DNA of 32,000 nt, taken from the NCBI GenBank assembly GCA_963778135.1, contig CAVZTC010000009.1, positions 1,231,826 to 1,263,825 on the forward strand, read 5' to 3'. Of this stretch, positions 3,458-32,000 are shown piece by piece. The position numbers were made by a program, and so were the translations under genes. Position 1 is the stretch's first letter. Every line of letters begins with the position of its first letter. The notes under the pieces were generated by a model. It worked only from the letters and a program-made list of their open reading frames with translations. It searched no databases and was not told the origin of the DNA. Source of the DNA: an uncultured Actinomycetota bacterium (lineage in GTDB: Bacteria; Actinomycetota; Actinomycetes; Mycobacteriales; Mycobacteriaceae).

Positions 3458-3459
3458 GC

Positions 3460-3467
3460 GGGGGGGG
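3460..3467. repeat. G8 homopolymer tract
   Basis: GCGGGGGGGGCC lies 3 nt after the HxlR-2 stop codon (3455-3457) and 45 nt before the first possible start of the FHA-cyclase gene. Confidence 0.9.
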
Positions 3468-3511
3468 CCTGACCAACGCTGTATTGTCTGCACCGACATC
3501 CGACGCCAGGC

Positions 3512-8169: not shown

Positions 8170-9831
8170 GTGGTGAGCTTCTTGGTGTCGCCCCCGGAGA
8201 TCATTTCTTCGCGTCTGTTTTCCGGTGCTGGTCCGGGCTCGCTGTTGGCGGCCGCGGCCTCCTGGCAGGGCCTGTCCTCGGAGTTACAGACGGCGGCGTC
8301 GTCGTTCGGGTCGTTGACGTCGACGCTGGCGAGCGGACCGTGGCAGGGCGCTGCGTCGGCGGCGATGATGACTGTGGCTGCGGGCCACGTGCAGTGGTTA
8401 ACGGCGGTTGCGGCGCGAGCTGACGAGACCTCCGCGGGGGCCATGGCGGCGGTGTCGGCGTTTGAGGCGGCGCAGGCATCCACTGTGCACCCCTTGGTGG
8501 TTGCGGCGAACCGCGCTCGGTTCGTGTCGTTGGCGTTGTCGAACCTGTTCGGGCTGAACGCCCCGGCGATCGCGGCCACCGAGGCGCACTACGCGCAGAT
8601 GTGGGCCCAGGATGTGGAGGCCATGGTCGGCTACCACGGCGCGGCCTCGGCGGCGGCGTCGAGCCTGCAGTCCTGGGAGGATGAGCTGACGAGCTTCCTG
8701 GAGGCCTATTCAAACCTTGGGTCGGGCAACACCGGGGGCTTGAACCTGGGCAATAACAACACCGGCTGGTTGAACATCGGATCTGATAACTCCGGGCTGG
8801 GCAACATTGGCAATGGCAACATTGGGAACGGCAATCTGTTCGCCGGTAACGCCAAAGGCTCGTTCAACCTTTTCAGTCTCAACGCTACAGGCTTCGTCAA
8901 CTTTATCAGTCTCAACGCTAACGGCATCCTCAACTTTATCAGTCTCGGCAACACCGGCAATTTCAACACAACCAATTTCAACCCCGCCGGTCCCGAGTTG
9001 GCCATTCTTGCTCTTCTCACTCCTGAGGATCCCCTGTCTTGGATCGAGTACCCCAGGTTCTTGAGCGACCTAACCGGCGGCCTCGTCGGAATTGGCTATC
9101 CACATCCTGGCCTCAACAACCTGCCTTTTACGATAGCAATCTCTGGTGGAAATAACGGCCTCAATAACTTTGGCGGGGGAAACTTTGGTGAATTTAACTT
9201 CGGGCACGGAAATCTAGGAGACTGGAACAAGGGCAGCGGAAATATCGGGATCGCGAACTCCGGCAGCGGAAATATCGGAAATTACGACACCGGCAGCGGG
9301 AATATCGGAGACCATAACACGGCGGGTGGGAACATCGGCAGCTACAACGTCAGCGCCGGAAACATTGGCAACCATAACGTGAGCGGGCTGCGCGGGGTGT
9401 TAATGAGTGTGTTAACCGTCCCCATGACTCTCAACGGAACAATCCCAGGAATTTACGTCGATTTGTTGCCGTATGTGAAGGATGTCCAGAATGTCACGCA
9501 TGCCCTGCAGAGCACCATAGGATCCTTCAGTGGCGGAGCGAACATCGGCGACTTCAACGTTGGCAGCGCGAACTTTGGCAGCAACAACTTCGGCTCCGCC
9601 AACATCGGCGACTTCAACGTGGGCAGCGTAAACGTCGGCAGTCATAATGTTGGCTTCGCAAATACAGGCGCGGGGCACACCGCGGCAATCAACGACTATG
9701 GCCTGGCCAACACGGGTAGCAACGATGTCGGCTTTGCCAACACGGGCAATCACGACGTCGGCATCGGCCTTACCGGTGACAACCAGGTGGGTATTGGCCC
9801 CGGTTTCTTCAGTCTGGGGTCAGAACGGTAA
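8170..9831 (+). CDS. PPE family protein, MPTR subclass; ORF as it stands, truncated by a frameshift
   Basis: The N-terminal ~175 aa form a typical PPE domain: VSFLVSPPEIISSRLFSGAGPGSLLAAAASWQGLSSEL...HYAQMWAQDVEAMVGYHG. Asn/Gly NxGxGNxG-type repeats follow. A GGGAGGAG Shine-Dalgarno sequence lies at 8154-8161, ahead of GTG 8170. Confidence 0.9.
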   Translation: MVSFLVSPPEIISSRLFSGAGPGSLLAAAASWQGLSSELQTAASSFGSLTSTLASGPWQGAASAAMMTVAAGHVQWLTAVAARADETSAGAMAAVSAFEAAQASTVHPLVVAANRARFVSLALSNLFGLNAPAIAATEAHYAQMWAQDVEAMVGYHGAASAAASSLQSWEDELTSFLEAYSNLGSGNTGGLNLGNNNTGWLNIGSDNSGLGNIGNGNIGNGNLFAGNAKGSFNLFSLNATGFVNFISLNANGILNFISLGNTGNFNTTNFNPAGPELAILALLTPEDPLSWIEYPRFLSDLTGGLVGIGYPHPGLNNLPFTIAISGGNNGLNNFGGGNFGEFNFGHGNLGDWNKGSGNIGIANSGSGNIGNYDTGSGNIGDHNTAGGNIGSYNVSAGNIGNHNVSGLRGVLMSVLTVPMTLNGTIPGIYVDLLPYVKDVQNVTHALQSTIGSFSGGANIGDFNVGSANFGSNNFGSANIGDFNVGSVNVGSHNVGFANTGAGHTAAINDYGLANTGSNDVGFANTGNHDVGIGLTGDNQVGIGPGFFSLGSER

Positions 9832-10306
9832 CTATGGTTTCTTCAACTCGGGCACCAATAATATTGGTGTCTTCAATTCAGGCTCCGGAAATGCGGGCGC
9901 GTTCAATTCAGGCATCCAGTCCACGGGAATCGGAAACGCCGGCATCACTGACGCCGGCTTGTGGAACACGGGCATGGGCAACGCGGGCTGGGGAAACTCG
10001 GGCAACTTCAACACTGGCCTCTGGAACGCGGGTGATAACAATAGCGGCTGGGGGAATGCCGGCAACGGAAATACCGGCCTATTCAACGCGGGTCTGAACA
10101 ACAGTGGACCCTATAACGCGGGCGACGGAAACCAGGGCGCCTACAACGGCGGCAACAATAACGTCGGCGTCGATAATTCGGGTAATACGAATAACGGGGC
10201 ATTCAACTCGGGCAACACAGACCAGGGCGCCTTTAACTCGGGCAGCTCCGATACGGGCTGGTGGAACTCTGGCTCGGGCATTCACGGTGTCGGCAATCAA
10301 CCTTAA
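9820..10306 (+). pseudogene. 3' continuation of the same PPE-MPTR gene, displaced into the +1 frame
   Basis: The frame of ORF 9647..10306 continues perfect MPTR repeats from about 9817: GQNGNYGFFNSGTNNIGVFNSGSGNAGAFNSG...GWWNSGSGIHGVGNQP*. Removing one G from the GGGG run at 9816-9819 joins ...GIGPGFFSLG to QNGNYGFFNSG in a single frame. Confidence 0.75.
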
Positions 10307-13415: not shown

Positions 13416-15782
13416 ATGGAACGTGATGGCCAGGCGCTTCCGCTTTCGCGGGCACAGCTAGGTATTTGGTTTGCGCAGCAAGCGGGTTTCTTCGATACGG
13501 AGTGGCCGATCGGCCTATTTCTGATAGTCGAGGCGGCTGTAGTACCTGATGTGGTTGAGCAGGCAATCCGGAGAGTAGTGGAAGAGGCTGAGCCAATCAG
13601 GGCCACTTTCTTCGAGGCGGATGGCGAGATTTACCAAAAGGTAATTGAAGACCCGGATATCGAGCTTCCGCTGTATGACCTGAGGTCCTCGAATGATCCC
13701 GTGCAGGAGGCGTACAGGATAGCGGAGTCGATCCAACGTAAGCCGATGCCGCTCGATGGCCCGTTGTTTAAATTTGCGTTATTGCGGACGAGGACCGATG
13801 AGTCCTACGTATTCCTGTGCTGCCACCATATCGTCGTCGACGGGTTCGGCATTGGAATTCTTGGGCATCGGATCGCGGCTGTCTACTCTGCACTGGTTTC
13901 TGGCGTGCCCATCCCGCCCGGGTTCTTCGGCTCGCTGCATGACCTGATTGAGTGCGAATCAGAATACGAAGCATCCGCCGAATATCACGACGATCTGGCC
14001 TACTGGAAAAGAAATCTTCCACCGGATACGGCACAGCAATATCGGTTGCCGCAGGCGACCGGAGGGGGTGATTCCGGCTGGCGCTCTGCGCCGGTACAAC
14101 TGGACCCTTCGGTTGTCGCTCGAATACAGGAGTTATCGGAGTTTTTGGGTGTTCGCCGAGCCTCGGTGACGACGGCGGCGTGCGCGCTTGTGGTGCATGA
14201 ATTGTCCGCTGGGGGCCCCGAGGTGGTGCTCGACTTCCCGGTCAGTCGGCGCGTGCGTCCGGAGTCGAAGATGGTTCCCGGCATGTTCGCCGGGGTGGTG
14301 CCTTTGGTGTTGACGGCGTCGCCGGGATCGACGGTTGCCGGTTTTTGTGAGCATGTTGACGGACGAATACGAGAAACGCTGCAACATCAGCGTTTTCCGG
14401 TGCACATTCTTGAGGGCAGGGACCGCCTCCTTGACCCGCATGGCGCGGCACAACGGGTGAATATCAATTTCATCCCGGCCGCGATGAGTGGGACCTTCGG
14501 GGGTGCGCCGGGATCGGGATTGGTGACCACTTTTGGCCCGGTGGGCCACTTTGCGCTGTTCTTCCTGCGAGCCGGTGATGAGCTGTCGCTGAGCACCGCG
14601 GGTTGCGGGCAGCCGTTTTCGAATTTCTCCGTCGCCGATTTAGCGCGTCGATTGGAGCAGGTGGTGGTGGCGATGGCCGCCGACCCCTCCCGGCGGCTGG
14701 CGTCGATGGATCTGTTGGACGGTGGTGAGCACGCCCGGCTGGACGGCTGGGGGAATCGGGCGGTGTTGACCCGGCCGGCGAGCGCACCGGTGTCGATTCC
14801 GCCGTTGTGGGCCGCCCAAGTTGCACGCACGCCGGAGGCGGTGGCGCTGACGTTCGCGGGGCGCTGCACGACGTACCGGGGGCTTGAGGAGGCGTCGAAC
14901 CGGTTGGCGCACCTGCTGGTGGGCCGGGGTGTGGGTCCGGGGCAGTGTGTGGCGCTGCTGTTTACCCGTTCCATCGATGCGATTACCGCGATTACGGCGG
15001 TGCTGAAGACGGGGGCGGCCTATCTCCCCATCGATCCGGGCCTGCCGGCGGCCCGGATCGCGTTTATGCTCGCTGATGCGGCACCGGTGGCCGCGATCAC
15101 CACCACCGCGCTGGCCGCCCACCTCGAGGGCTATGACCTGCTGGTCATCGATGTCGAGGACCCCGCCATCGACACCCAACCCGTTACCGCGCTACCGGCG
15201 CCGCGCCCCGATGACCTGGCCTACCTGATCTACACCTCGGGCACCACCGGAACCCCCAAGGGCGTCGCGGTCAGTCATGCCGGCATTCCCGACTTAGTGG
15301 CCACCCGCGCGGAGCGTCTTGGCATCGGGCCGACGAGTCGCGTCCTGCAGTTTGCTCCGTTCATCTTCGATGCGTCGGTGGTGAACCTGTGGGTTGCGTT
15401 GTTGACCGGCGCGACCGCAGTACTGCCCGCCGAGGACCAAGCGCTACCGGGCCGGGAATTAGTGGACTTGATCGTCGAGCAGAACGTCTCTCACGGGGAA
15501 TTGACGCCCACCGCGATCGCCGCCCTCCCCGAACACCGAGCTGCACGGCATGACTGTGATTGCCGGCGGCGAGGTCTGCTCGACAGACCTTGTCGCGCGC
15601 TACGCCGATGCCGGCTCCTTCATCAACTCCTACGGCCCGACCGAGGCGAGCGTGGACCTGACCATGACGGGCCCGCTGGCTGCCGATTGCGGAACGCCAC
15701 CGATTGGTTACCCGGTGTCGTGGGCGGGGTTGTTTGTCCTGGATGGCTGGTTGCGCAGGGCGCCACTGGGTGCGGTCGGTGA
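13416..15782 (+). CDS. NRPS segment 1 (starter C domain plus first part of A1); meaningful translation ends at ~15528
   Basis: ORF-track protein begins [29 protein letters not shown] (C3 motif) lies at 13824-13844 and [17 protein letters not shown] (A3 motif) at ~15220. After ...[10 protein letters not shown] the ORF degenerates into an Arg/Cys-rich tail, while the +1 frame continues with [14 protein letters not shown]. Confidence 0.85.
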
Positions 15783-16480
15783 ACTGTATGCCGCGGGTCG
15801 CGGTGTGGCCTATGGGTATTGGGGCCGTTCACGCGAGACCGCGTCGCGGTTTGTGGCCTGCCCATTCGGGGGAGTCGGCGAACGCATGTATCGCACCGGG
15901 GATCTGGTGTGGTGGGGTGCTGATGGGCAGTTGCGGTATGCGGGGCGCGCTGATGAGCAGGTCAAGATCCGCGGGTATCGCATTGAGCTGGGCGAAGTCC
16001 GGGCCGCGCTGGCCCAGCTTGCGGGGGTGGAGCAGGCGGTGGTGATCGCCCGTGAGGACCGTCCTGGGGATCGGCGGCTGGTGGGTTATGTGACGGGGAC
16101 GGCGGACCCGGCCGCGGTGCGTAGCGTGCTGGCCGAGCGGCTGCCGGTCTATATGGTTCCCGCGGCCGTGGTGGTGGTGGAGGCGTTGCCGTCGACGCCT
16201 AACGGCAAGCTCGACGTCCGCGCGTTGCCGGCCCCCGATTTTGGCGATGTTGACCGGTATCACGCCCCAGCGACGCCGGTTGAGGAGATCTTGGCCGGTA
16301 TTTTCGCGCGGGTCTTGGGGTTAGCGCGGGTGGGGGTCGAGGACTCGTTTTTCGAGTTGGGTGGGGATTCCCTGTCGGCGATGCGCCTGATTGCGGTGGT
16401 CAACAAGTCGTTGGGTGCTGGTCTGTCGGTGCGGACGGTGTTTGAGGAGCCGACGATCGCGGGGTTGGCGCGGCATCTCG
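13416..16480 (+). other. NRPS module 1: C(starter-type)-A1-T1
   Basis: C1 spans ~13416-14700 (HHIVVDG at 13824-13844). A1 spans ~14740-16240 ([49 protein letters not shown]). T1 spans ~16260-16480 ([18 protein letters not shown] at ~16359-16376). Frameshift 1 lies inside A1. Confidence 0.8.
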
Positions 16481-19400
16481 GCGCAGACACGGTTGCGCGT
16501 CAGCCGCTGGTGGCTGGTGAGAGGCCGGCGGTGGTGCCGTTGTCGTTTGCCCAGCAGCGGTTGTGGTTTTTGAATCGGTTCGAGGGCGGGGTCGCCACCT
16601 ACAACATCCCGGTCGCGTTTCGGGTGAGCGGGGCGCTGGATGTCGAGGCGTTCGGTGTGGCGCTCGATGATGTGATCGCCCGTCATGAGTCGCTGCGCAC
16701 CGTGTTTCCCGATCGGGAGGGTGTGCCGGTCCAGCAGGTGATACCGGCGTCGGCGGGGTTGTGGCGGCGCGGTGGTGCCGCGGTGCTGGCGGTGCCGGAG
16801 GCCGAGGTGGTCGCGGAGTTGGTGGGGTTGGCCGGGTATCGGTTTGATTTGGCCGGCGAGGTCCCGATCCGCGCGCAGATCTATGCGCTGGGCCCCGAGC
16901 AGTATGTGGTGGGGATGGTGGTGCACCACATCGCGTTTGATGGGTGGTCGCTGGCCCCGATGGTGCGTGATGTGGCCCAGGCGTACGCGGCGCGCTGCCA
17001 GGGCGGCGCCCCGGGTTGGGCGCCGTTGCCGGTGCAGTATGTCGATTACACGTTGTGGCAACGGCAGTGCTTGGGCGAGGAGTCTGATCCGCACAGTGCG
17101 ATCGCCGCGCAGTTGGCCTACTGGCGCCAGGAGTTGGCGGGGCTGCCGCAGGTGGTGTCGCTGCCCACCGATCGGCCCCGTCCGGCGGTAGCCAGTTACC
17201 GCGGTGATGCGGTGGCGCTGGTCATTGAGGCGCCGGTGTGGGCGGGGGTCAAGGCGCTGGCCGCCGAGCACAACGCGACGCCCTCGATGGTGTTGCAGGC
17301 GGTCATGGCGGTGGTGTTGGCCAAGGCCGGGGTCGGTTCGGATGTGGTGATGGGTTCGGTGATCGCCGGGCGTTTGGATGAGGCGCTCGATGATCTGGTC
17401 GGGTTTTTCGTCAACACCTGGGTGTTGCGGGTCGGTGTCGAGGCCGGCGACCGGTTCGGTGAGGTGTTGGCGCGGGTGCGCGACAAGGCGCTGAATGCCT
17501 ACACCCATCAGGAGATTCCGTTTGAGTTGCTGGTGGAGCGGCTCAACCCGGTGCGTTCAGCGGCGCATCATCCGCTGTTTCAGGTGTGCATGGTGCTCCA
17601 GAACAATGCGCTCCCCGAGCAGATTGCGCTGGACGGGGTCGCCGTTGAGCCGCTGGCGACGTCCACCCACACCGCCAGGTTCGACCTGGACATCCAGCTG
17701 TGGGAGGTGCCCACCGGGGATCCGGGGGTGTCGATGGCCGCCGGTGCGGTGACCTATGCCACGGATTTGTTTGACCGGGCCAGCATCGAGCGGTTGGTCG
17801 GCTGGTTCGCGCGGGTCCTGCAAGCGGTCATCGCCAATGCCTTGGTGCCCGTCGCAGAGGTGTCGTTGCTGGATGCCGGTGAGCGTGATCGGGTGCTGTC
17901 CGACTGGTCTGGCGCCCAGGTGGAGGCGCCGGTAGGGGTGGCGCCGGCGTTGCTGGCTGCCGCGGTGGCCGCTGACCCGGACGCGGTGGCGGTCATCGAC
18001 GGCGACCGGCAGCTGTCGTATCGCGAGCTTGATGAGTGCTCGACGCGGTGGGCTCGGGTGCTGATCGAGACCGGGGTGGGTCCCGAGCGCGCAGTGGGTG
18101 TGGCGACGGGTCGGTCTGTGGAGTTGGTGGTCGCCTGGTGGGCGGTGGCCAAGGCCGGCGGGACCTATGTGCCGGTGGATCCGACCCATCCGGTGGCGCG
18201 GGTCGCAGCGGTATTGGATGCGGTGAGCGCGGAGTGTGTGTTGACCTGTGGTGTCGACACCATGGCCGCGGCCGGGGCCCGCCCGGTGCTGCGCATGGAT
18301 GTTTCAGACGCCCTGGACGTGTCCGCGCGTTCCGCGGAACCGATCACCGATGCCGAGCGGCTGGCGCCGCTGACGGTGGACAACTCCGCGTATGTGATCT
18401 TCACGTCCGGGTCTACCGGTGTCCCCAAGGGGGTGGCGGTCAGCCACGCCGGTCTGCTCGGGCTGGCCGCCGCGCTACGGGCGGTGTTCGAGGTGGATGC
18501 CGGTGCGCGGATCCTGATGGTGGCCGCACCGACCTTCGATGCCTCGATTAGCGAGATGTTGGTGGCGGTGGAGTCGGGGGCGGCGCTGGTGGTGGCGCCG
18601 CCGGAGGTGTATGCCGGTGCGGCGTTGACCGCGTTGCTGGCCGAGCAGCGGGTCAACGCCGCGAAATTGACCCCGTCGGTGCTGGCGACGCTGGATCGGG
18701 CCCGACTGGGCGGATTGGGCACCGTGGTCGTCGCCGGTGAGGCGTGCCCGGCGGAGTTGGTGCACACCTGGGTGCCGGGCCGGCGGATGGTCAACGCCTA
18801 CGGCCCCACCGAGGCCACCGTCTGGGCGACCTGTGCACGACTCGTGGCGGGCCAGCCCGTTACCATCGGCGCTCCGCTTGCGGGGGCGTGCGCGCTGGTG
18901 CTCGATTCCCGACTGAATCCGGCCCCGATCGCGGTGGTGGGCGAGTTGTATCTGGCCGGGCCCGGTCTGGCCCGCGGTTATGTGGGCCGGGCGGGGTTGA
19001 CCGCGGAACGCTTTGTAGCCAATCCTTTCGGGGGTGCCGTTGGCCAGAACGGGACGCCGGGAACACGGATGTATCGCACCGGGGACCTGGTGCGCTGGAC
19101 CCCGGCCGGTGACCTGGAGTACCTGGGTCGCGCTGATGCCCAGATCAAACTGCGTGGGCAGCGTATCGAGTTGGGTGAGATCGAAAACACCCTGTTGGCG
19201 TGCCCTCAGGTCAGCCAGGCCGCCGCGGCCGTGCATCACAGCGATACCGGTTCTGCGCTGGTCGCCTACATCACTGTGGAGGACACCGCCAGCCCCGATC
19301 ACGACGCCGAAAGCCTCGAAGAGTGGCAACACCTGCATGACGAGCTGTATGGCGCTGAGCTAGCCCAGGTCCCTGGGGTCCCGGGGGTCCCTGGGGTCCC

Positions 19401-22400
19401 TGGGGTCAATGGGATCGAGGCGCCGGGGTTCGGGATGGACTTTCGGGGCTGGAACAGCAGCTTTACCGGTGATCCGATTCCGCTGGAGGAGATGCTGGAG
19501 TGGCGTTCGGCCACGGTGGATCGGATCTTGGCCTTGGGGCCGCGGCGGGTGTTGGAGATCGGGGTGGGCAGCGGACTGCTGTTGTCGCAGATCGCCCCGC
19601 ACTGCGAACGCTATGTCGGCACCGATGTGTCGGGCGTGGTCATCGACAACATGGCCGGCGCGCTGCAGCGCCAGGGCCAGTGGCGGGATCGCGTCGAGTT
19701 ACACGCCCAGCCCGCTCACCTGGCTGAGGCGTTGCCGCGCGGCTATTTCGACACCATCATCGTCAACTCGGTCGTCCAGTACTTCCCGCACGCGGGGTAT
19801 CTGACCGAGGTCCTCGACACCGCGCTGGATTTGTTGGCCCCGGGTGGGGCGGTGTTTATCGGCGATGTGCGCAACCACGGCCTGGCCGCCGCGTTCTACA
19901 CCGCGGTCGTGTTGGCCGGTGCCGCCAGGTCAGAAACCTCGGATGCTATCGAGGCTGCCGAGATCAGTCAGCGGGTGCAGCGCGCGATGCTCGGCGAATC
20001 CGAATTGTTGTTGGCGCCGGAGTTTTTCACCGGTTGGGCCGGGGGTCAGGCGGTGGTGGCCGGGGTCGATATCGAAGTCAAGCGGGGATCGGCTGATAAC
20101 GAACTGACCCGGTATCGCTACGACGTCGTCATTCACACGGCCCCCACCGGGGTGTGTTCGCTGGCCACCGCGCCGGTGTGGGCGTGGGCCGACTGTGCGG
20201 GTCTGGACGGGCTGGGCGCCCGGTTGCAGTCCGGGCCTCGTACCGCGGTGCGCGTTACCGCCATCCCGGCCAGGGGGCTGTTCACCGACGTGCGTCGGCA
20301 CGCCGCCGTCGACGCCGCGGTGGCCGCGGGGGTTGCGCTGGGCGAGGTACTCGCCGACACCGACACTGGGGTCCCCCTGGCGGTGACCACTGAGCAGCTG
20401 CATCGCCTGGGTGAGGCCAGCGGGTATCGCGTCGCGGTCACCTGGGGTGCCCAGCCCGGCACGTTGGACGCGGTTTTCCTGGCTGCCACCGAGGCGGATG
20501 GTGAGCCCATGGCGGCGTTGACCGATATCTACCTGCCCGCGGCCGGGGATCGGCCGTACGCCAATGATCCGCAGATCACCGCCAAAGTCGGCGCGGTGCG
20601 GGCGCGGTTGAGTGCGTGGTTGCCCGAGTACATGGTGCCGGCGCACCTTGTGGTGCTTGACCAGTTTCCGTTGACGTCGTCGGGCAAGCTCGACCGTAAC
20701 GCGTTGCCGGCGCCGGTGTTTGACGCGAAACCGTTCCGGGCGCCGGCGACGCGGACCGAGGAGATCGTGGCCGGGGTGTTCGCGCAGGTGCTGGGCCTGG
20801 GTCGGGTCGGGCGCGACGACGACTTCTTTGCCCTGGGTGGGGATTCGTTGAGCGCCACTCGGGTGGCCGCGCGGTTGCAGGTCGCGGCGGGCAGTCAGGT
20901 GTCGGTGCGGTCGTTGTTCGAGGCGTCCACCGTCGCGTCGCTGGCCGAGTATCTGGGCCGCGATGGCGGTGGGCCGGTGCGCCCGCCGTTGGCGGTGATG
21001 ACGCGTCCGGCGGTGGTGCCGTTGTCGTTTGCCCAGCAGCGGTTGTGGTTCCTGGACCGGTTGGAGGGCGGGGTCGCCACCTACAACATTCCGGTCGCGT
21101 TTCGGGTGAGCGGGGCGCTGGATGTCGAGGCGTTCGGTGCGGCGCTCGATGATGTGATCGCCCGCCATGAGTCGCTGCGCACCGTGTTTCCCGATCGGGA
21201 GGGTGTGCCGGTCCAGCAGGTGATACCGGCGTCGGCGGGGTTGTGGCGGCGCGGGGGTGCCGCGGTGGCGGCGGTGCCGCACGACGAGGTGGCCGCGGAG
21301 TTGGTGGGGTTGGCCGGGTATCGGTTTGATTTGGCCGGCGAGGTCCCGATCCGCGCGCAGATCTATGCGCTGGGCCCCGAGCAGTATGTGGTGGGCATGG
21401 TGGTGCACCACATCGCGTGTGATGGGTGGTCGCTGGTCCCGATGGTGCGTGATGTGGCCCAGGCGTACGCGGCGCGCTGCCAGGGCGGCGCCCCGGGGTG
21501 GGCGGCGTTGCCGGTGCAGTATGTCGATTACACGTTGTGGCAACGGCGGTGGTTGGGCGAGGAGTCTGATCGGCACAGTGTGATCGCCGCGCAGTTGGCC
21601 TATTGGCGCCAGGAGTTGGCGGGGCTGCCGCAGGTGGCGTCGCTGCCCAGCGATCGGCCGCGTCCGGCGGTGCCCAGTTACCGCGGTGATGCGGTGGCGC
21701 TGGTTATTGAGGCGCCGGTGTGGGCGGGGGTCACGGCGCTGGCGGCGGCGCACAACGCGACGGCGTCGATGGTGTTGCAGGCGGTCATGGCGGTGGTGTT
21801 GGCCCGGGCCGGGGCCGGCGACGACATCGTGTTGGGTTCGGTGATTGCCGGGCGGTTGGATGAGGCGCTCGATGATCTGGTCGGGTTTTTCGTCAATACG
21901 TGGGTGTTGCGGGTCGGTGTGGAGGCCGGCGACCGGTTCGGTGAGGTGTTGGCGCGGGTGCGGCGCAAGGCGCTGGATGCCTACACCCATCAGGAGATTC
22001 CGTTTGAGTTGCTGGTGGAGCGGCTCAACCCGGTGCGTTCAGCGGCGCATCATCCGCTGTTTCAGGTGTGCATGGTGTTCCAGAACAATGCGCGCCCCGA
22101 GCAGGTCGCGCTGGACGGGGTCGCGGTGGAGCCGTTGGCGACGTCGACCCGGACCGCCAAGTTCGACCTGGATTTCCAGCTCAGCGAAATGCCCACCGGC
22201 GATCCGGGGGTGTCGATGGCCGCCGGGGTGGTGACCTATGCCACGGATTTGTTTGACCGGGCCAGCATCGAGCGGTTGGTCGGCTGGTTCGGGCGGGTGT
22301 TGGAGGCGGTGATCGCTGATGCCTCGGTGGTGGTCGGCGACGTGGCGTTGCTGGATGCCGGTGAGCGCGCCCGCCTGGATGGGTGGGGCAACCGCGCGGT

Positions 22401-25400
22401 GTTGACCCGGCCGGCCCCGACACCGGTGTCGATTCCGGTGCTGTGGGCCGCCCAAGTCGCGCGCATCCCTGAGGCGGTGGCGGTGACGTTCGAGGACCGC
22501 TGCATGACGTACCGGGAGCTTGATCAGGCCGCTAACCGGCTGGCGCATCTGTTGGTCGCCCAGGGTGTGGGTCCGGGACAGTGTGTGGTGCTGCTGTTTA
22601 GCCGTTCCATCGAGGCGATTGCGGCGATGTTGGCGGTGCTGAAGACGGGGGCGGCGTATTTGGCGATCGATCCGGGTCTGCCGGCGGCCCGGATCGGGGT
22701 GATCGTTGCCGATGCTGCGCCGATCGCCGCGGTGAGCACCGCCGGGCTGGCCGAGCGCCTCGACGGGTGTGTGCTGGTCATCGATGTCGGTGATATCTGG
22801 GCCCCCGCTGGTGACAGCCACCCGGTCGCCGCGTTGGCGCCACCGGCCGGTGAGGACATCGCGTACATCATTTACACCTCGGGGACTACTGGTGCGCCCA
22901 AGGGTGTGGCTGTGGCTCACCGCAACGTGACCCAGCTGTTGGAGGCGCTGGATGGCGAGGTGCCGCGTGCGGGGGTGTGGACGCAGTGTCATTCGTTGGC
23001 GTTCGACTTTTCGGTGTGGGAGATCTGGGGTGCGCTGCTCGGTGGCGGGCGGTTGGTGGTGGTCTCGGAGTTGGTGGCCCGCTCACCGGAGGACTTCCAT
23101 GCCTTATTGGTCGCTGAACGGGTCAGCGTTTTAAGTCGGACCCCGTCGGCGTTTTATACGTTGCCGGCCCCTGATGCGCTGGGGTCTGGGCGGGCAGATC
23201 AGCTGGCGGTTGAGGTTGTGGTGTTCGGCGGGGAAGCGCTGCAACCGCAGCGTTTGGGGTCGTGGCTGGATCATCCGGGATCGCCGCGGCTGATCAACAT
23301 GTATGGCATCACCGAGACGACGGTGCATGCGTCGGTGCGCGAGATCGGGATCGGTGATGTCACCAGCATCGCCAGTCCTATTGGGGTGCCGTTGGCGCAT
23401 CTTGGGTTTTTTGTGCTGGACGGGCGGCTCAATCCGGTGCCGGTGGGTGTGGTGGGGGAGTTGTATGTCGCCGGGTCGGGGTTGGCGTATGGGTATGTGC
23501 GCCGGGCCGGGTTGAGCGGGTCGCGGTTTGTGGCGTGTCCGTTCGGGAGTCCGGGGGCGTCGGGAACGCGGATGTATCGCACTGGGGACGTGGTGCGCTG
23601 GACTGCCCGGGGTGAGCTGGAGTACCTGGGTCGTGCTGATGAGCAGGTCAAACTGCGCGGGTATCGCATCGAGTTGGGGGAGATCGAAAACACCTTGTTG
23701 GCGTGTCCGCAGGTCAGCGGGGCCGCCGCCGCGGTGTATCACAGCGACACCGGTTCGCAGCTGGTCGCCTACATCACCGTCGGCGACACCGCCGGCTCCG
23801 AGCGTGACACCGAAAGCGTCGAAGAGTGGCACGAGCTGTATGACGAGTTGTATGGCGCTGAGCTAGCCCAGGTCCCTGGGGTTGAGGCGCCGGGGTTCGG
23901 GATGGACTTTCGGGGTTGGAACAGCAGCTTTACCGGTGATCCGATTCCGCTGGAGGAGATGATCGAGTGGCGTTCGGCCACGGTGGATCGGATCATGGCC
24001 CTACAACCGCGGCGGGTGTTGGAGATCGGGGTGGGCACCGGACTGCTGTTGTCGCAGATCGCCCCGCACTGCGATCACTATGTCGGCACCGATATGTCGG
24101 GCGTGGTCATCGAGAACCTGGCCCACGCGGTAGAGAGTCAGGGCCAGTGGCGCGATCGTGTCGAGTTGCGCGCCCAGCCCGCTCACCTGGCTGAGGGGTT
24201 GCCGCGCGGCTATTTCGACACCATCATCGTCAACTCGGTCGTCCAGTACTTCCCGCACGCGGGGTATCTGACCGAGGTCCTCGACACCGCGCTGGATTTG
24301 TTGGCCCCGGGTGGGGCGGTGTTTATCGGCGATGTGCGCAACCACGGCCTGGCCGCCGCGTTCTACACCGCGGTCGTGTTGGCCGGTGCCGCTAGGTCAG
24401 AAACCTCGGATGCTATCGAGGCTGCCGAGATCAGTCAGCGGGTGCAGCGCGCGATGCTCGGCGAATCCGAGTTGTTGTTGGCGCCGGAGTTTTTCACCGG
24501 TTGGGCCGGGGGTCAGGCGGTGGTGGCCGGGGTCGATATCGAAGTCAAGCGGGGATCGGCTGACAACGAACTGACCCGGTATCGCTACGACGTCGTCATT
24601 CACACGGCCCCTACCGGGGTGTGTTCGGTGGCCACCGCGCCGGTGTGGGCGTGGGCCGACTGCGCGGGTCTGGACGGGCTGGGCGCCCGGTTGCAGTCCG
24701 GGCCTCGTACCGCGGTGCGGGTGACCGCCATCCCGGCCAGGGGGCTGTTCACCGACGTGCGTCGGCACGCCGCCGTCGACGCCGCGGTGGCTGCGGGGGT
24801 TGCGCTGGGCGAGGTACTCGCCGACACCGACACTGGGGTCCCCCTGGCGGTGACCGCTGAGCAGCTGCATCGCCTGGGTGAGGCCAGCGGGTATCGCGTC
24901 GCGGTCACCTGGGGTGCCCAGCCCGGCACGTTGGACGCGGTTTTCCTGGCTGCCACTGAGGCGGATGGTGAGCCCATGGCGGCGTTGACCGATATCTACC
25001 TGCCCCCGGCGGGGGCCGGAGACCGGGCGCACGCCAATGATCCGCAGATCACCGCCAAAGTCGGCGCGGTGCGGGCGCGGTTGAGTGCGTGGTTGCCCGA
25101 GTACATGGTGCCGGCGCACCTTGTGGTGCTCGAGGCGTTCCCGGTGACGTCGTCGGGCAAGCTCGACCGTAAAGCCCTGCCGGCGCCGGTGTTGGACGCG
25201 AAACCGTTCCGGGCCCCGGCGACGCGGACTGAGGAGATCGTGGCCGCGGTGTTCGCGCAGGTGCTGGGCCTGGGTCGGGTCGGGCGCGACGACGATTTCT
25301 TTGCCCTGGGTGGGGATTCGTTGAGCGCCACTCGGGTGGCCGCGCGGCTGCAGGTGGGGTCGGGCAGACGGGTGTCGGTGCGGTCGTTGTTTGAGGCGCC

Positions 25401-26835
25401 CACGGTGGCTGGTCTGGCTGAGTATCTGGGCCGGGAGGGTCAGGGGCCGGTGCGTCCGCCGTTGGCGGTGATGACGCGCCCGGCGGTGGTGCCGTTGTCG
25501 TTTGCTCAGCAGCGGTTGTGGTTTTTGAACCGGTTGGAGGGCGGGGTCGCCACCTACAACATCCCGGTCGCGTTTCGGGTCAGCGGGGCGCTGGATGTCG
25601 AGGCGTTCGGCGCGGCGCTCGATGATGTGATCGCCCGCCACGAGTCGCTGCGCACCGTGTTTCCCGATGAGGACGGTGTGCCGGTTCAGCAGGTGATACC
25701 GGCGGGGGTGGGGTTGTGGCGGCGCGGAGGTGCCGCGGTGGAGGCGGTGCCGGAGGCCGAGGTGGTCGCGGAGTTGGTGGGGTTGGCCGGGTATCGGTTT
25801 AATTTGGCCGGCGAGGTCCCAATTCGGGCGCAGATCTATGCGGTGGGCCCCGAGCAGTACGTGGTGGGGATCGTGGTGCACCACATCGCTATTGATGGGT
25901 GGTCGCTGGCCCCGATGGTGCGTGATGTGGCCCAGGCGTACGCGGCGCGCTGCCACGGTGTGGCCCCGGGGTGGGCGCCGTTGGCGGTGCAGTATGTCGA
26001 TTACACGTTGTGGCAACGGCAGTGGTTGGGCGAGGAGTCTGATCCGCGCAGTGTGATCGCCGCGCAGTTGGCGTATTGGCGCCAGGAGTTGGCCGGTGTG
26101 CCCCAGGTGGTGTCGCTGCCCAGCGATCGGCCGCGCCCGGCGGTCGTCAGTTACCGCGGTGATGCGGTGGCGCTGCGTATCGAGGCGCCGGTGTGGGCGG
26201 GGGTCAAGGCGCTGGCCGCCGCGCACAACGCGACGGTCTCGATGGTGTTGCAGGCGGTCGTGGCGGTGGTGCTGGCCCGCGGCGGGGCCGGTGACGACAT
26301 CGTGTTGGGTTCGGTGATCGCCGGGCGGTTGGATGAGGCGCTCGATGATCTGGTCGGGTTTTTCGTCAACACGTGGGTGTTGCGGGTCGGCGTGCACCCC
26401 GCAGACCAGTTCGGTGAGGTGTTGGCGCGGGTGCGACGCAAGGCGCTGGATGCCTACACCCATCAGGAGATTCCGTTTGAGTTGCTGGTGGAGCGGCTCA
26501 ACCCGGTGCGCTCAGCGGCGCATCATCCGCTGTTTCAGGTGTGCATGATTTTCCAGAACAATGCGCGGCCCGAGGCGGCGCTGCAGGGCGTCGCGGTGGG
26601 AGCCGCTGGAGATGTCGACCCGGACCGCCAAGTTCGACCTGGATATCGAGCTGGGCGAGGTGGATACCGGCGATCCGGGGGTGTCGATGGCCGCCGGGTT
26701 CGTGTCGTATGCCACGGATTTGTTCGACCGGGCCAGCATCGAGCGGTTGGTCGGCTGGTTCGGGCGGGTCCTGCAGGCGGTCATCGCCGACCCGTCGGTG
26801 GTGGTCGGCGACGTGGCGTTGCTGGATGCCGCTGA
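15550..26835 (+). CDS. NRPS segment 2 (rest of A1-T1, modules 2 and 3, most of C4); meaningful translation runs ~15529-26598
   Basis: 3761-aa ORF containing [36 protein letters not shown], three [11 protein letters not shown] carrier motifs, three HHIAxDGWS condensation motifs and two embedded methyltransferases. After ...GVAV at 26598 the ORF turns into an Arg/Gly-rich tail, while the +1 frame continues with [15 protein letters not shown]. Confidence 0.9.
19330..20566 (+). other. embedded SAM-dependent N-methyltransferase domain MT2 (inserted between A-domain core motifs A8 and A9/A10)
   Basis: [17 protein letters not shown] is the SAM-binding motif I (VLExGxGxG). [15 protein letters not shown] matches the NRPS N-MT core motif NELSxYRYxAV. 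The domain is flanked upstream by [20 protein letters not shown] (A8) and downstream by LPEYMVP...SSGKLDR (A9/A10). Confidence 0.85.
19369..19413 (+). repeat. in-frame 9-bp tandem repeat, 4 good copies plus 1 degenerate, encoding (VPG)n
   Basis: The repeat reads GTCCCTGGG GTCCCGGGG GTCCCTGGG GTCCCTGGG GTCAATGGG and encodes [15 protein letters not shown]. The paralogous site in module 3 (about 23868-23880) has a single VPG; [11 protein letters not shown] there corresponds to [23 protein letters not shown] here. Confidence 0.9.
19417..22360. repeat. ~2.9-kb direct repeat, copy a (MT2-A2 tail-T2-C3)
   Basis: Matches 23884-26835 at offset 4467. The offset grows to 4473 after a 6-nt indel near 20540/25010 and to 4474 after the extra G at 26598-26600. 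The antisense ORFs 19930..21990 and 24397..26463 in the track are near-identical. Confidence 0.85.
20962..23832. repeat. 2.87-kb direct repeat, copy 1 (T2-C3 linker, C3, A3 core)
   Basis: Matches 28706-31576 at a constant offset of 7744 nt. By hand I counted roughly 30 mismatches, nearly all in the first ~900 bp. In the supplied track the antisense ORF translations 22039..22992 and 29783..30736 are letter-for-letter identical. Confidence 0.9.
21003..25430 (+). other. NRPS module 3: C3-A3(interrupted by MT3)-T3
   Basis: C3 spans ~21003-22340 (HHIACDG at 21406-21426). The A3 core spans ~22375-23832 ([41 protein letters not shown]). MT3 spans ~23833-25038. The A3 tail runs to ~25190. T3 spans ~25210-25430. 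Confidence 0.85.
23833..25038 (+). other. embedded SAM-dependent N-methyltransferase domain MT3
   Basis: [17 protein letters not shown] and [15 protein letters not shown] are present. Over most of its length it differs from MT2 by only two residues (the stretch [21 protein letters not shown]...ALTDIYLP). Confidence 0.85.
23884..26835. repeat. ~2.9-kb direct repeat, copy b (MT3-A3 tail-T3-C4)
   Basis: See copy a. Confidence 0.85.
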
Positions 26836-28700
26836 GCGTGATCTGGTGCTGTCCGACTGGTCCGGCGCCGGTGTGGGGGCGCCGATAGGGGTGGTGTCGG
26901 CGTTGCTGGCGGCCGCGGTGGCCGCTGACCCGGACGCGGTGGCAGTCATCGACGGCGAGCGGCAGCTGTCGTACCTGCAGCTTGATGAGTGCTCGACGCG
27001 GTGGGCTCGGGTGCTGATCGAGACCGGGGTGGGTCCCGAGCGCGCGGTAGGCGTGGCGATGGACCGGTCTGTGGAGTTGGTGGTGGCCTTCTGGGCGGTG
27101 GCCAAGGCCGGCGGGGTGTATGTGCCGGTGAATCCGGCGCATCCGGTGGCGCGGGTCGCGGCGGTGCTCGACGCGGCCGGGGCGGTGTGTGTGGTGACCT
27201 GTGGTGTCGACACCGTGGCCGGGGCCGGGGCCCGCCCGGTGCTGCGGATCGATGCTTCGGACGCTGCCGACGTGTCCGGGCGGAGCGCGCAGCCGATCAC
27301 TGACGCTGAGCGGCTGGCGGCGTTGACGGTGACTAACACGGCGTATGTGATGTTCACGTCCGGGTCCACCGGTGTCCCCAAGGGGGTGGCGGTCAGCCAC
27401 GCCGGTCTGCTGGGGCTGGCCGCCGCACTGCGGGCGGTGTTCGGGGTGGGTGCCGACGCGCGGGTATTGATGGCGGCCGCGCTGACCTTTGATGCCTCGG
27501 TCGGCGAGTTGTTGGTGGCGGTGGAGTCGGGGGCGGCGCTGGTGGTCGCGCCGCCGGAGGTGTATGCCGGTGCGGCGTTGACGGCGTTGCTGGACGAACA
27601 GCGGGTGAGCACCGCGCTGTTGACCCCGACGGTGCTGGCGACGCTGGATCGGGCCCGGCTGACCGGGCCGCAGGCGTTACACACGCTGGTCGCTATCGGG
27701 GAGGCCTGCCCGCCGGAGGTGGTGGACGCGTGGGCGCCGGGCCGGCAGATGTTCAACGCCTACGGCCCGACCGAGGCCAGCGTGTGGGCCACCTGTGCAC
27801 GACTGGTGGCGGGTCAGCCGGTCAGTATCGGCGCCCCGCTTGCGGGGGCGTGTGTGCTGGTGCTCGATGCCCGGCTGAACCCGGCCCCGGTGGGGGTGGT
27901 GGGCGAGTTGTATCTGGCCGGGCCTGGTCTGGCGCACGGTTATCTGGGCCGGGCGGGGTTGACCGCGGAACGCTTTGTAGCCAATCCTTTCGAGGACGCC
28001 GTTGGCCAGAACGGGACGCCGGAAACACGGATGTATCGCACCGGGGACCTGGTGCGCTGGACCCCCCGAGGTGACCTGGATTATCTGGGTCGCGCTGATG
28101 CCCAGATCAAACTGCGTGGGCAGCGTATCGAGTTGGGTGAGATCGAAAACACCCTGTTGGCGTGCCCGCAGGTCAGCCAGGCCGCCGCGGCCGTGCATCA
28201 CAGCGACACCGGTTCGCAGCTGGTCGCCTACATCACCGTGCAGCACCCCGCCAGCCCCGAGCGCGACACCGAAACCCTCGACGAATGGCCGCACCGGTAT
28301 GAGGAGCCGGATGGCGCTGAGGACACCACACTGAGCGCGGTGCGGGCGCGGTTACGTCAGTGGTTGCCCGAGTACATGGTGCCGGCACACATCGTGGTGC
28401 TCGAGGCATTCCCGGTCACGTCGTCGGGCAAGCTCGACCGTAAAGCGTTGCCGGCGCCGGTGTTTGACGCGAAACCGTTCCGGGCGCCGGCGACGCGGAC
28501 CGAGGAGATCGTGGCCGGGGTGTTCGCACAGGTGCTGGGCCTGGGTCGGGTCGGGCGTGACGACGACTTCTTTGCGCTGGGTGGGGATTCGTTGAGCGCC
28601 ACGCGGGTGGCCGCGCGGCTGCAGGTCCCGTTGGGCAGGCAAGTGCTGGTGCGGGCGTTGTTTGAGGCGCCCACCGTGGCTGATCTGGCCGACCATCTGC
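25470..28700 (+). other. NRPS module 4: C4-A4(no MT, scar)-T4
   Basis: C4 spans ~25470-26835 (HHIAIDG at 25879-25899; frameshift 2 at 26598-26600). A4 spans ~26880-28440 and is a paralogue of A2 ([31 protein letters not shown]). T4 spans ~28480-28700. Confidence 0.8.
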
Positions 28701-31700
28701 AGCGCCATGGCGGTGGGCCGGTGCGACCGCCGTTGGCGGTGATGACGCGTCCGGCGGTGGTGCCGTTGTCGTTTGCCCAGCAGCGGTTGTGGTTCCTGGA
28801 CCGGTTCGCCGGCGAGGTGGGCACCTACAACATTCCGGTCGCGTTTCGGGTGAGCGGGGCGCTGGATGTCGAGGCGTTCGGTGCGGCGCTCGATGATGTG
28901 ATCGCCCGCCATGAGTCGCTGCGCACCGTGTTTCCCGATCGGGAGGGTGTGCCGGTCCAGCAGGTGATACCGGCGTCGGCGGGGTTGTGGCGGCGCGGGG
29001 GTGCTGCGGTGGCGGCGGTGCCGCACGACGAGGTGGCCGCGGAGTTGGTGGGGTTGGCCGGGTATCGGTTTGATTTGGCCGGCGAGGTCCCGATCCGCGC
29101 GCAGATCTATGCGCTCGCACCCGAGCAGTATGTGGTGGGCATGGTGGTGCACCACATCGCGTGTGACGGGGGGTCGCTGGTCCCGATGGTGCGTGATGTG
29201 GCCCAGGCGTACGCGGCGCGCTGCCAGGGCGGCGCCCCAAGCTGGGCGGCGTTGCCGGTGCAGTATGTCGATTACACGTTGTGGCAACGGCGGTGGTTGG
29301 GCGAGGAGTCTGACCCGCACAGTGTGATCGCCGCACAGTTGGCCTATTGGCGCCAGGAATTGGCGGGGCTGCCGCAGGTGGCGTCGCTGCCCACCGATCG
29401 GCCGCGTCCGGCGGTGCCCAGTTACCGCGGTGATGCGGTGGCGCTGGTTATTGAGGCGCCGGTGTGGGCGGGGGTCACGGCGCTGGCGGCGGCGCACAAC
29501 GCGACGGCGTCGATGGTGTTGCAGGCGGTCATGGCGGTGGTGTTGGCCCGCGGCGGGGCCGGCGACGACATCGTGTTGGGTTCGGTGATCGCCGGGCGGT
29601 TGGATGAGGCGCTCGATGATCTGGTCGGGTTTTTCGTCAATACGTGGGTGTTGCGGGTCGGTGTGGAGGCCGGCGACCGGTTCGGTGAGGTGTTGGCGCG
29701 GGTGCGGCGCAAGGCGCTGGATGCCTACACCCATCAGGAGATTCCGTTTGAGTTGCTGGTGGAGCGGCTCAACCCGGTGCGTTCAGCGGCGCATCATCCG
29801 CTGTTTCAGGTGTGCATGGTGTTCCAGAACAATGCGCGCCCCGAGCAGGTCGCGCTGGACGGGGTCGCGGTGGAGCCGCTGGCGACGTCGACCCGGACCG
29901 CCAAGTTCGACCTGGATTTCCAGCTCAGCGAAATGCCCACCGGCGATCCGGGGGTGTCGATGGCCGCCGGGGTGGTGACCTATGCCACGGATTTGTTTGA
30001 CCGGGCCAGCATCGAGCGGTTGGTCGGCTGGTTCGGGCGGGTGTTGGAGGCGGTGATCGCTGATGCCTCGGTGGTGGTCGGCGACGTGGCGTTGCTGGAT
30101 GCCGGTGAGCGCGCCCGCCTGGATGGGTGGGGCAACCGCGCGGTGTTGACCCGGCCGGCCCCGACACCGGTGTCGATTCCGGTGCTGTGGGCCGCCCAAG
30201 TCGCGCGCATCCCTGAGGCGGTGGCGGTGACGTTCGAGGACCGCTGCATGACGTACCGGGAGCTTGATCAGGCCGCTAACCGGCTGGCGCATCTGTTGGT
30301 CGCCCAGGGTGTGGGTCCGGGACAGTGTGTGGTGCTGCTGTTTAGCCGTTCCATCGAGGCGATTGCGGCGATGTTGGCGGTGCTGAAGACGGGGGCGGCG
30401 TATTTGGCGATCGATCCGGGTCTGCCGGCGGCCCGGATCGGGGTGATCGTTGCCGATGCTGCGCCGATCGCCGCGGTGAGCACCGCCGGGCTGGCCGAGC
30501 GCCTCGACGGGTGTGTGCTGGTCATCGATGTCGGTGATATCTGGGCCCCCGCTGGTGACAGCCACCCGGTCGCCGCGTTGGCGCCACCGGCCGGTGAGGA
30601 CATCGCGTACATCATTTACACCTCGGGGACTACTGGTGCGCCCAAGGGTGTGGCTGTGGCTCACCGCAACGTGACCCAGCTGTTGGAGGCGCTGGATGGC
30701 GAGGTGCCGCGTGCGGGGGTGTGGACGCAGTGTCATTCGTTGGCGTTCGACTTTTCGGTGTGGGAGATCTGGGGTGCGCTGCTCGGTGGCGGGCGGTTGG
30801 TGGTGGTCTCGGAGTTGGTGGCCCGCTCACCGGAGGACTTCCATGCCTTACTGGTCGCTGAACGGGTCAGCGTTTTAAGTCGGACCCCGTCGGCGTTTTA
30901 TACGTTGCCGGCCCCTGATGCGCTGGGGTCTGGGCGGGCAGATCAGCTGGCGGTTGAGGTTGTGGTGTTCGGCGGGGAAGCGCTGCAACCGCAGCGTTTG
31001 GGGTCGTGGCTGGATCATCCGGGATCGCCGCGGCTGATCAACATGTATGGCATCACCGAGACGACGGTGCATGCGTCGGTGCGCGAGATCGGGATCGGTG
31101 ATGTCACCAGCATCGCCAGTCCTATTGGGGTGCCGTTGGCGCATCTTGGGTTTTTTGTGCTGGACGGGCGGCTCAATCCGGTGCCGGTGGGTGTGGTGGG
31201 GGAGTTGTATGTCGCCGGGTCGGGGTTGGCGTATGGGTATGCGCGCCGGGCCGGGTTGAGCGGGTCGCGGTTTGTGGCGTGTCCGTTCGGGAGTCCGGGG
31301 GCGTCGGGAACGCGGATGTATCGCACTGGGGACGTGGTGCGCTGGACTGCCCGGGGTGAGCTGGAGTACCTGGGTCGTGCTGATGAGCAGGTCAAACTGC
31401 GCGGGTATCGCATCGAGTTGGGGGAGATCGAAAACACCCTGCTGGCGTGTGCGCAGGTCAGCGGGGCCGCCGCTGCGGTGTATCACAGCGACACCGGTTC
31501 GCAGCTGGTCGCCTACATCACCGTCGGCGACACCGCCGGCTCCGAGCGTGACACCGAAAGCGTCGAAGAGTGGCACCACGACCCGCAGATCACCAGCAAA
31601 CTCAGCGCCGTGCGTGCGCAGTTAAGTGCATGGTTGCCCGGGTACATGGTGCCGGCGCACATTGTGGTGCTCGAGGCGTTTCCGGTGACGTCGTCGGGCA

Positions 31701-32000
31701 AGCTCGACCGTAAAGCCTTGCCGGCGCCGGTGTTTGACGCGAAACCGTTCCGGGCGCCGCGGACCCGGACCGAGGAGATCGTGGCCGGGGTGTTCGCCGA
31801 GGTGCTGGGCCTGGGTCGGGTCGGGTGTGATGACGATTTCTTCGCTCTGGGTGGGGATTCGTTGAGCGCCACTCGGGTGGCCGCGCGGCTGCAGGTGGCT
31901 TTGGACAGACGGGTGTTGGTGCGGTCGTTGTTCGAGGCGTCTACCGTCGCCGATCTGGCCGACCATCTGCAGCGCCATGGTGGCGGGCCGGCCCGCCCCC
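26600..32000 (+). CDS. NRPS segment 3 (end of C4, A4-T4, C5-A5-T5), open at the right edge
   Basis: Not in the ORF track because it has no stop codon in the window. My translation in the frame of position 26600 reads [64 protein letters not shown]... It continues through [28 protein letters not shown], two [11 protein letters not shown] motifs, [26 protein letters not shown] and [11 protein letters not shown]. It ends ...[14 protein letters not shown] at 31999. Confidence 0.85.
28706..31576. repeat. 2.87-kb direct repeat, copy 2 (T4-C5 linker, C5, A5 core)
   Basis: See copy 1. Identity ends abruptly at GAAGAGTGGCAC (23821-23832 and 31565-31576), the point where MT3 begins in module 3. Confidence 0.9.
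28747..31970 (+). other. NRPS module 5: C5-A5(no MT, scar)-T5
   Basis: C5 spans ~28747-30090 (HHIACDGGS from 29150). A5 spans ~30120-31700 and is near-identical to the A3 core. T5 spans ~31750-31970 ([11 protein letters not shown]). The window ends exactly where the earlier modules begin their next C domain, so at least one more C domain is expected beyond 32000. Confidence 0.8.

Follow-up and report, generated by a model that had tools for sequence, protein, structure and literature searches.

The conformation of a non-ribosomal (lipo)peptide, its resistance to proteases and its antigenicity all depend strongly on N-methylation. In the TioS structure the methyltransferase (M) domain, of ∼380 residues, is inserted into the small subdomain of an adenylation (A) domain, between its a8 and a9 core motifs, and it contacts that subdomain only (PMC10510592; PMC9056781). 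In engineering work by the Garneau-Tsodikova laboratory, A domains that had no interruption were given M domains, and the a8–a9 loop tolerated them, with adenylation and specificity kept (PMC9056781). Removal has also occurred naturally: PMC8097286 and PMC6950048 cite Fewer et al. 2008 and Kurmayer et al. 2005 for Anabaena and Planktothrix whose McyA has lost its N-methyltransferase domain in frame, with non-methylated microcystins as the result. Here we describe a multimodular non-ribosomal peptide synthetase (NRPS) gene in a 32,000-nucleotide stretch of DNA (hereafter the window) from an uncultured Actinomycetota bacterium of the family Mycobacteriaceae (GenBank assembly GCA_963778135.1, contig CAVZTC010000009.1, positions 1,231,826 to 1,263,825 of the forward strand). 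In our reading, to which we give a probability of about 0.75, the A domain of its module 5 was formerly interrupted and lost its M domain through an in-frame deletion of ∼1.2 kb, leaving a 23-residue scar in the a8–a9 loop.

A 1,203-bp in-frame deletion in module 5

Pfam matches gave the gene layout as C(starter)-A1-T / C-A2(M)-T / C-A3(M)-T / C-A4(scar)-T / C-A5(scar)-T, with C and T standing for condensation and thiolation domains. Repeat analysis gave module periods of 4482, 4473, 3271 and 3270 bp. The period difference of ∼1.2 kb corresponds to the M domain, which is present in modules 2 and 3, both with Pfam matches to Methyltransf_12/23/25/11, and not in modules 1, 4 and 5. The A3-M-A3 stretch was homologous over its full length to the interrupted A domain of TioS (PDB 5WMM; E = 1.6e-116). 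Compared module by module, A2 and A4 were 82–92% alike, A3 and A5 99–100%, and all C domains 85–99%. For the sequence after the junctions we used anchored ungapped alignment together with pairwise alignment with cheap gap extension, since in a global MAFFT alignment of whole modules the tails of modules 4 and 5 were wrongly placed there.

The junction in module 5 was read directly between positions 31576 and 31577, as GAA GAG TGG CAC / CAC GAC CCG CAG ATC ACC, giving SVEEWH/HDPQIT. Its best alignment on module 3 runs up to 23832, takes in CAC at 25030–25032 and resumes at 25039. Missing relative to module 3 are 23833–25029 and 25033–25038, a total of 1,203 bp (401 codons), in frame; the repeat spacing of 4473 versus 3270–3271 bp fits this loss.

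Left of the junction, modules 3 and 5 aligned without gaps at an offset of 7744, with 77 mismatches in 20582–23832 and just seven in 21900–23832. The A core (22450–23832) had six mismatches in 1,383 bp, or 99.6% identity, and the longest perfect run between the two modules was 971 bp. Four of the seven mismatches fell in the last 138 bp before the junction. On the right identity fell to 86%, with 58 of 424 bp mismatched (Fisher p = 4e-37 versus the left). Synonymous divergence (dS) between the two modules was correspondingly 0.010 left of the junction and 0.215 right of it. The first-pass annotation had proposed an excision of the M domain from module 5 on the strength of a ∼99% match between the A5 and A3 cores, and both the excision and the near-identity are borne out.

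Table 1. Features of the NRPS gene, in window positions.
Feature	Position	Strand	Basis
Multimodular NRPS gene, running beyond the window end	13416..32000	+	Pfam domains, module repeats
CCCC run, +1 frameshift inside A1	15527..15530	+	tblastn frame switch between 15527 and 15541
M domain interrupting A2	19333..20565	+	alignments
M domain (N-methyltransferase-type) interrupting A3 between a8 and a9; piece absent from module 5	23833..25038	+	Pfam Methyltransf_12/23/25/11, TioS 5WMM homology
GGG run, +1 frameshift inside C4; modules 2, 3 and 5 have GG	26598..26600	+	alignment of four C domains
Module 4 scar, ending /DTTLS, junction 28321/28322	28241..28334	+	direct reading, alignment
Tract near-identical to module 3 (21847–23832): end of C5 and A5 core, stopping at the junction	29591..31576	+	7 mismatches in 21900–23832, dS 0.010
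Left scar of module 5: linker and first conserved M block V-E-E-W-H	31526..31576	+	identical to module 3 at 23782–23832
Right scar of module 5: HDPQIT, left from the M domain's C-terminal end	31577..31594	+	counterpart of (A)H(AN)DPQIT, module 3 25030–25056
Diverged right flank of module 5: a9 LPGYMVP 31634–31654, a10 Lys 31700–31702, T5 31781–31969	31580..32000	+	motifs intact, Pfam PP-binding

Loss versus gain of the M domain

We measured the a8–a9 spacing for every A domain of 160 loci and 120 homologous proteins. These outside sets comprised 479 unique locus-derived A domains, or 692 with protein matches added, and 55 of the 692 (∼8%) were M-bearing. Spacing was 50–57 amino acids in plain A domains, with a few up to ∼68 from unrelated causes, and 445–547 amino acids in M-bearing ones. 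It was 72 amino acids in module 5 and 77 in module 4, and in both the excess consisted wholly of M-domain ends. Each M end has a conserved block: V-(E/D)-(Q/E)-W-Q-x-(I/L/V)-Y-D-(E/D)-L-Y was found in 53 of the 55 unique outside M-bearing domains and the C-terminal (A/V)-N-(D/E)-P in 49, and neither was found in the plain A domains of the outside set.

The VEEWH retained in module 5 aligns with VEKWR of TioS (5WMM), and its counterpart in module 3 matches TioS VEKWRAIYDSMY. Because module 3 aligns with TioS there, the EEWH kept in module 5 is the first conserved M block and not A sequence. Across the junction, the His of module 5 matches module 3 (AHANDP), not module 2 (PYANDP). The flanking A sequence tells of the same ancestry. 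A signature just after a8 is accompanied by an M domain in 35 of its 40 carriers, and when both flanks of modules 4 and 5 were compared with the 692 unique outside A domains, 12–14 of the 15 nearest neighbours were M-bearing and one was scarred; the flanks thus sit among M-bearing A domains of other mycobacteria. With its spacing of 72 amino acids and no methyltransferase Pfam match in the second open reading frame (ORF), module 5 lacks the SAM-binding methyltransferase fold between a8 and a9 that defines an A8-Mb-A9 interrupted A domain; its VEEWH and DPQIT remnants and its flank neighbours, 14 of 15 of them M-bearing, place its descent in that (TioS-type) family.

With the opposite polarity, A5 would be ancestral and the M domain of module 3 a later insertion, copied for example from module 2. 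M sequence is exchanged between modules: identity between the M domains of modules 2 and 3 is 96% (97–100% in the core) versus ∼55% for their host A2 and A3 cores, and this tailoring domain appears to evolve in concert across the two modules, independently of the A cores. An insertion into module 3 is nonetheless hard to square with M sequence on both sides of the module 5 junction and never in plain A domains, or with flanks that place modules 4 and 5 in the M-associated lineage. The M ends, moreover, read WH-ELYDELY and AHANDP in module 3 and WQHLHDELY and PYANDP in module 2; since it differs at both ends, the module 3 M domain was not recently acquired from module 2. Regain of M3 from module 2 with a scar as the landing site was rejected for the same reason, both M3 ends, about the first 25 nt and the last codons, being unique. 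Given the remnants on both sides, the flank neighbours and these unique ends, an ancestral A5 is very unlikely. The first-pass annotation had named a phylogeny with A5 ancestral and the module 3 M domain inserted later as the finding that would overturn its excision reading, and the remnants and nearest neighbours go the other way, in support of loss. The M-less state of module 5 is very likely derived and the M domain of module 3 ancestral. We also considered a swap of the A subdomain for one from a plain A domain, as in Planktothrix mcyA, and rejected it: the right flank keeps M residues and groups with M-bearing domains.

Module 4 has a scar of its own, with a net 1,218 bp gone relative to module 2. 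It keeps 10 more codons on the left than module 5 does (11 residues after the Trp, versus only H), rather than the ∼14 first estimated, and on the right it lacks the DPQI that module 5 keeps. In the module 4 remnant L has changed to P and Y to D; of 53 outside M domains, 43 have L at the first of these sites and 48 have Y at the second. The scar appears decayed, which fits an old event under relaxed constraint.

The breakpoints of the two scars differ on both sides, as had been claimed, and the scars are not nested, each retaining residues absent from the other. Two events are the simplest account because neither scar can be derived from the other by more deletion, and a common scar needs three. 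The removals would not be independent if a single deletion in a common ancestor of modules 4 and 5 had been followed by minor secondary trimming of each copy. Both scars do lie in the same loop, and both right flanks read LSAVR, against the VGAVR of modules 2 and 3. Outside M-bearing domains, however, commonly have the Ser of LS, and in their right flanks modules 4 and 5 are no more alike (84–96%) than either is to modules 2 and 3. With these observations added to the non-nested breakpoints and the extra event, we consider a shared deletion improbable, and modules 4 and 5 probably lost their M domains in two independent deletions. The first-pass annotation's pair of independent in-frame removals thereby becomes probable. 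Its further step, to recurrent selection for a new N-methylation pattern, goes beyond the data, which give purifying selection on the flanks and an otherwise open frame.

Mosaic divergence, reading frame and function

The right flank of module 5 was 84–89% identical to modules 2, 3 and 4 in its first 100 bp and 87–88% identical over 405 bp, with dS of 0.20–0.27, and it is no copy of any other module in the window. A 3' flank more diverged than the 5' flank had been remarked on at first pass, and the mismatch counts (58 in 424 bp, versus seven in 21900–23832) agree. The proposal to date the deletion from that contrast fails, the step from dS 0.010 to 0.215 showing a mosaic history: flank identity cannot date the deletion because the identity on the left would stem from gene conversion or duplication that came later and stopped at the junction. 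The deletion in module 5 itself does not appear to be recent. Conversion or duplication of the C–A core shared by modules 3 and 5, bounded by indel heterology at the junction, would be the simplest account of the pattern.

We propose the following history. Modules 4 and 5 would have arisen as an old tandem copy of the two-module unit made up of modules 2 and 3. The M domain would then have been lost separately in each copy, with the loss in module 4 earlier, or at least its scar more decayed, and patchy gene conversion among the modules would have continued. Finally, a recent conversion or duplication would have homogenised the C–A core of modules 3 and 5, with its 3' end set by the heterology of the missing M domain.

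Several points weigh against this history or limit it. Identity to module 3 lasts to the final base before the junction and divergence then begins at once, as it would if illegitimate recombination had joined a fresh copy of module 3, broken exactly at the M start, to what follows M in an M-bearing module that was older and diverged. On that account one recent event, possibly one that removed further modules, would have brought about both the deletion and the homogenisation. We think such a hybrid join unlikely, since two different modules would have had to break at matching domain boundaries and the frame would have had to be kept by luck. In addition, the concentration of four of the seven mismatches in the last 138 bp fits layered tracts of conversion better than one fresh join, and module 4 shows that old single-module scars exist in this gene. 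A second point concerns the breakpoints. A search for microhomology, advised in the first-pass annotation, was run, and the most that the junction ends share is CAC/GCAC; with it the best model still needs the loss of 6 bp (GCCAAT) or three substitutions. The right flank having diverged, the exact breakpoints and any microhomology are beyond reconstruction, and slippage and illegitimate recombination cannot be told apart. A 12-bp tandem, ACGAGCTGTATG x2 at 23831–23854, was examined as the cause of the breakpoint and set aside, as it is simply the ELYDELY motif and gives no account of the breakpoint.

Third, the junction is known from one assembly, and the nearest relatives are at 60–63% amino acid identity. 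Modules with kilobase-long identical stretches could in principle provoke a repeat-induced misjoin or collapse: perfect repeats between modules 3 and 5 reach 971 bp, the assembly has indel-type errors, and the junction was not found in other collections. We rate such an artefact as very improbable. The M start and M end have no sequence in common by which an assembler could jump, and the right flank is unique: no other module matches it at more than 89%, which speaks against a misplaced copy. The result is exactly in frame, and homopolymer errors cannot make a 1.2-kb in-frame deletion. Module 4 also has a second, different scar, and independent assemblies contain comparable ones.

Fourth, the gene as assembled contains two +1 frameshifts, at homopolymer runs in A1 and C4 (Table 1), and the synthetase may not be expressed as one protein. 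The earlier statement that both junctions are in frame holds locally; these frameshifts elsewhere in the gene were missed. As assembled, the gene occupies three frames; once a C at 15530 and a G at 26600 are taken out, these merge into one stop-free ORF at least 6,194 codons long. The frameshifts in A1 and C4, together with a frame shift in the upstream PPE gene, could be taken as signs of neutral decay, with the M deletions as erosion of a pseudogene. That account is quite improbable. Barring two single-base homopolymer insertions, 6,194 codons or more are open. The insertions are either typical sequencing errors or very recent slippage mutations, and neither makes an eroded pseudogene. The core motifs are intact, both 1.2-kb deletions are in frame, and dN/dS (the ratio of non-synonymous to synonymous divergence) of the module 5 right flank versus other modules was 0.19–0.38, which shows purifying selection on the flanks that were kept.

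Module 5 retains what an NRPS adenylation domain of the ANL superfamily (PF00501 and PF13193) requires in its core motifs a1–a10, among them a8 (consensus GRxDxQVKxRGxRIE), a9 (LPxYMVP) and the a10 Lys. The Pfam AMP-binding match lies at 30194–31240, and a8 (31373), a9 (LPGYMVP), a10 (SSGKLDRK) and the carrier Ser are all intact. An AlphaFold2 model of the module 5 A subdomain with its T domain, built on an alignment of 27 sequences, had predicted local distance difference test scores of 85–98 over the canonical elements and 57–67 over residues 111–130, the scar (mean 77.8; predicted template modelling score 0.64). The A subdomain and T domain are thus predicted to fold with confidence, and the low-confidence scar is consistent with a loop. 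Rejoining the M ends would be expected to leave adenylation, thiolation and condensation intact, with module 5 adding its amino acid unmethylated. The rejoining is expected to be harmless because the M domain protrudes from the A subdomain and touches it alone (5WMM), and removal should be tolerated too because the same loop tolerates large insertions (PMC9056781). We infer that the module 5 assembly step is still functional and that its product lacks the methyl group at this residue.

The specificity residues of A3 and A5, taken from motif positions, are the same, DFWSVGMVHK, presumably a near match to a threonine code of DFWNIGMVHK. The M domain contains VLEIGVGxG and a second motif, both of which we take to be N-methyltransferase motifs. 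Its best solved homologue, for module 3, is TioS, and the host A3/A5 code is Thr-like; Ser/Thr O-methylating M domains likewise sit between a8 and a9 (PMC8341866). An O-methylating type acting on a Thr substrate, rather than one that methylates the backbone nitrogen, therefore keeps some likelihood.

Related scars and known systems

In the collections searched, the closest relatives reached 62–63% amino acid identity in genome contigs, 60% in the protein database and 56% in metagenome contigs, and a degenerate search of metagenomes for the module 5 junction pattern gave no match. Scarred A domains outside the window were found in only two places, whether among the 479 locus-derived domains or the 692 with protein matches added. 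Both are mycobacterial synthetases. Protein P0008 (metagenome contig L080, a8 at 13454) has the scar ILERTTPTGHQRRHTPPPTDLYLPPTGVDQRTTRANDPRTDTEISAVRQRLSAWLP with an a8–a9 spacing of 88 amino acids, and P0001 (Mycobacterium sp. E2733, residue 1360) has the scar LNQEPVEQCMSNDSLAECVDDPSAIERVADLRRF with a spacing of 79; both have breakpoints of their own. With modules 4 and 5 of the window, this makes four or more different scars. Some caution is due for the L080 scar because the NRPS region there looks frameshifted: L080 1–20400 is split into many short called genes, suggesting many frameshifts, and its long-read assembly was probably prone to errors. In P0033 and P0038, M-lineage flanks surround a clean 53-residue loop, LIAYIAGAPDLDTAVVRQWLGARLP, and P0033 holds one M-bearing and one M-less module with the same flanks and the clean loop. 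Loss of the M domain thus appears recurrent among these most similar synthetases, yet rare overall.

Short a8–a9 inserts of another kind were seen in several A domains of two Nostoc loci, L073 and L074. These read TCTERSRSK or TCTEHLDFARWSRSRSK, are repeated across modules, and resemble in-frame insertions of a small repetitive DNA element.

Elsewhere in the NRPS gene, a 9-bp tandem repeat (GGTCCCTGG x4.4, 19368–19407) encodes 12 residues in the N-terminal linker of the module 2 M domain and is not in module 3. The first C domain (13416–14400) has weak likeness to the internal C domains, 43% likeness to P0008 and a partial Pfam match, and an ABC transporter gene lies directly 5' of it. The domain and the preceding transporter gene are consistent with a starter (lipo-initiation) C domain.

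The window has a G+C content of 0.59–0.70 and, outside the NRPS gene, also encodes a PPE protein, both in keeping with a Mycobacterium-like actinobacterium, and an aldehyde dehydrogenase. Exact look-ups of this aldehyde dehydrogenase and of P0001 returned no record. The PPE-MPTR gene (PPE with Pentapeptide_2 repeats, 8170–10306) changes frame near 9780–9830, and its repeats go on in the ORF at 9647–10306, making this the third apparent frameshift of the window. A 1,114-codon ORF at 2894–6238 on the minus strand is Arg-rich and without a family match, and we rejected it as a spurious high-GC ORF. It runs antisense to plus-strand genes for an HxlR regulator and an FHA-domain protein, and overlaps, in another frame, an acyltransferase_3 gene at 4531–5895 on the minus strand.

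Natural scars of this kind mark where an M domain can be cut from its A domain with frame and core motifs kept, and four such cut points are now seen. The extra loop of ∼20 residues is predicted to be harmless, so the scars could serve as blueprints for NRPS engineering. They also provide a case of diversification of the tailoring pattern inside one assembly line, and the ∼20-fold jump in dS at the junction suggests that indel heterology bounds conversion tracts between modules. More speculatively, and with the odds well against it on present evidence, M loss may be family-wide in mycobacterial lipopeptide synthetases, with scar ends and conversion providing homology arms for loss and re-acquisition; if true, the N-methylation pattern of the product would be evolutionarily switchable.

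Set beside the described systems, modules 2 and 3 are full-length homologues of TioS(A4aM3A4b) (PDB 5WMM; Mori et al. 2018; PMC8341866, PMC10510592), with the M domain between a8 and a9. Modules 4 and 5 differ from TioS in being without an M domain and keeping only its terminal residues; they are derivatives of that type, not members. Unlike the engineered insertions, the change here is a natural removal, and it leaves ∼20 extra residues behind. Background on mycobacterial lipopeptide synthetases is given in PMC8103206. The gene mps1 of M. avium subsp. paratuberculosis, one of these, reportedly underwent module-level deletion and recombination (L5P versus L3P). By description it resembles our gene in being an NRPS of a mycobacterium, in having an N-methylated residue and in the close similarity and recombination of its modules; the mps1 case drops whole modules, whereas here only the tailoring domain is gone.

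The mcyA deletion is the nearer parallel in kind. There too, as that case is described in the citing papers, almost the whole A-embedded M domain is gone through an in-frame deletion of ∼1.2 kb (1,203 bp in module 5, with a9, a10 and T intact), and by the same descriptions the assembly line is still active and makes non-methylated [Dha7]-microcystin. The present locus differs in having two scars with different breakpoints in one gene, in belonging to an actinobacterial, Mycobacterium-like synthetase known from its sequence alone, and in that the module 5 scar stands beside an almost identical M-bearing paralogous module. The principle of in-frame M loss is already known from mcyA, and no new class of mechanism is involved here. 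What this locus adds is two different scars in one gene, a near-identical M-bearing paralogue, and a conversion tract bounded by heterology.

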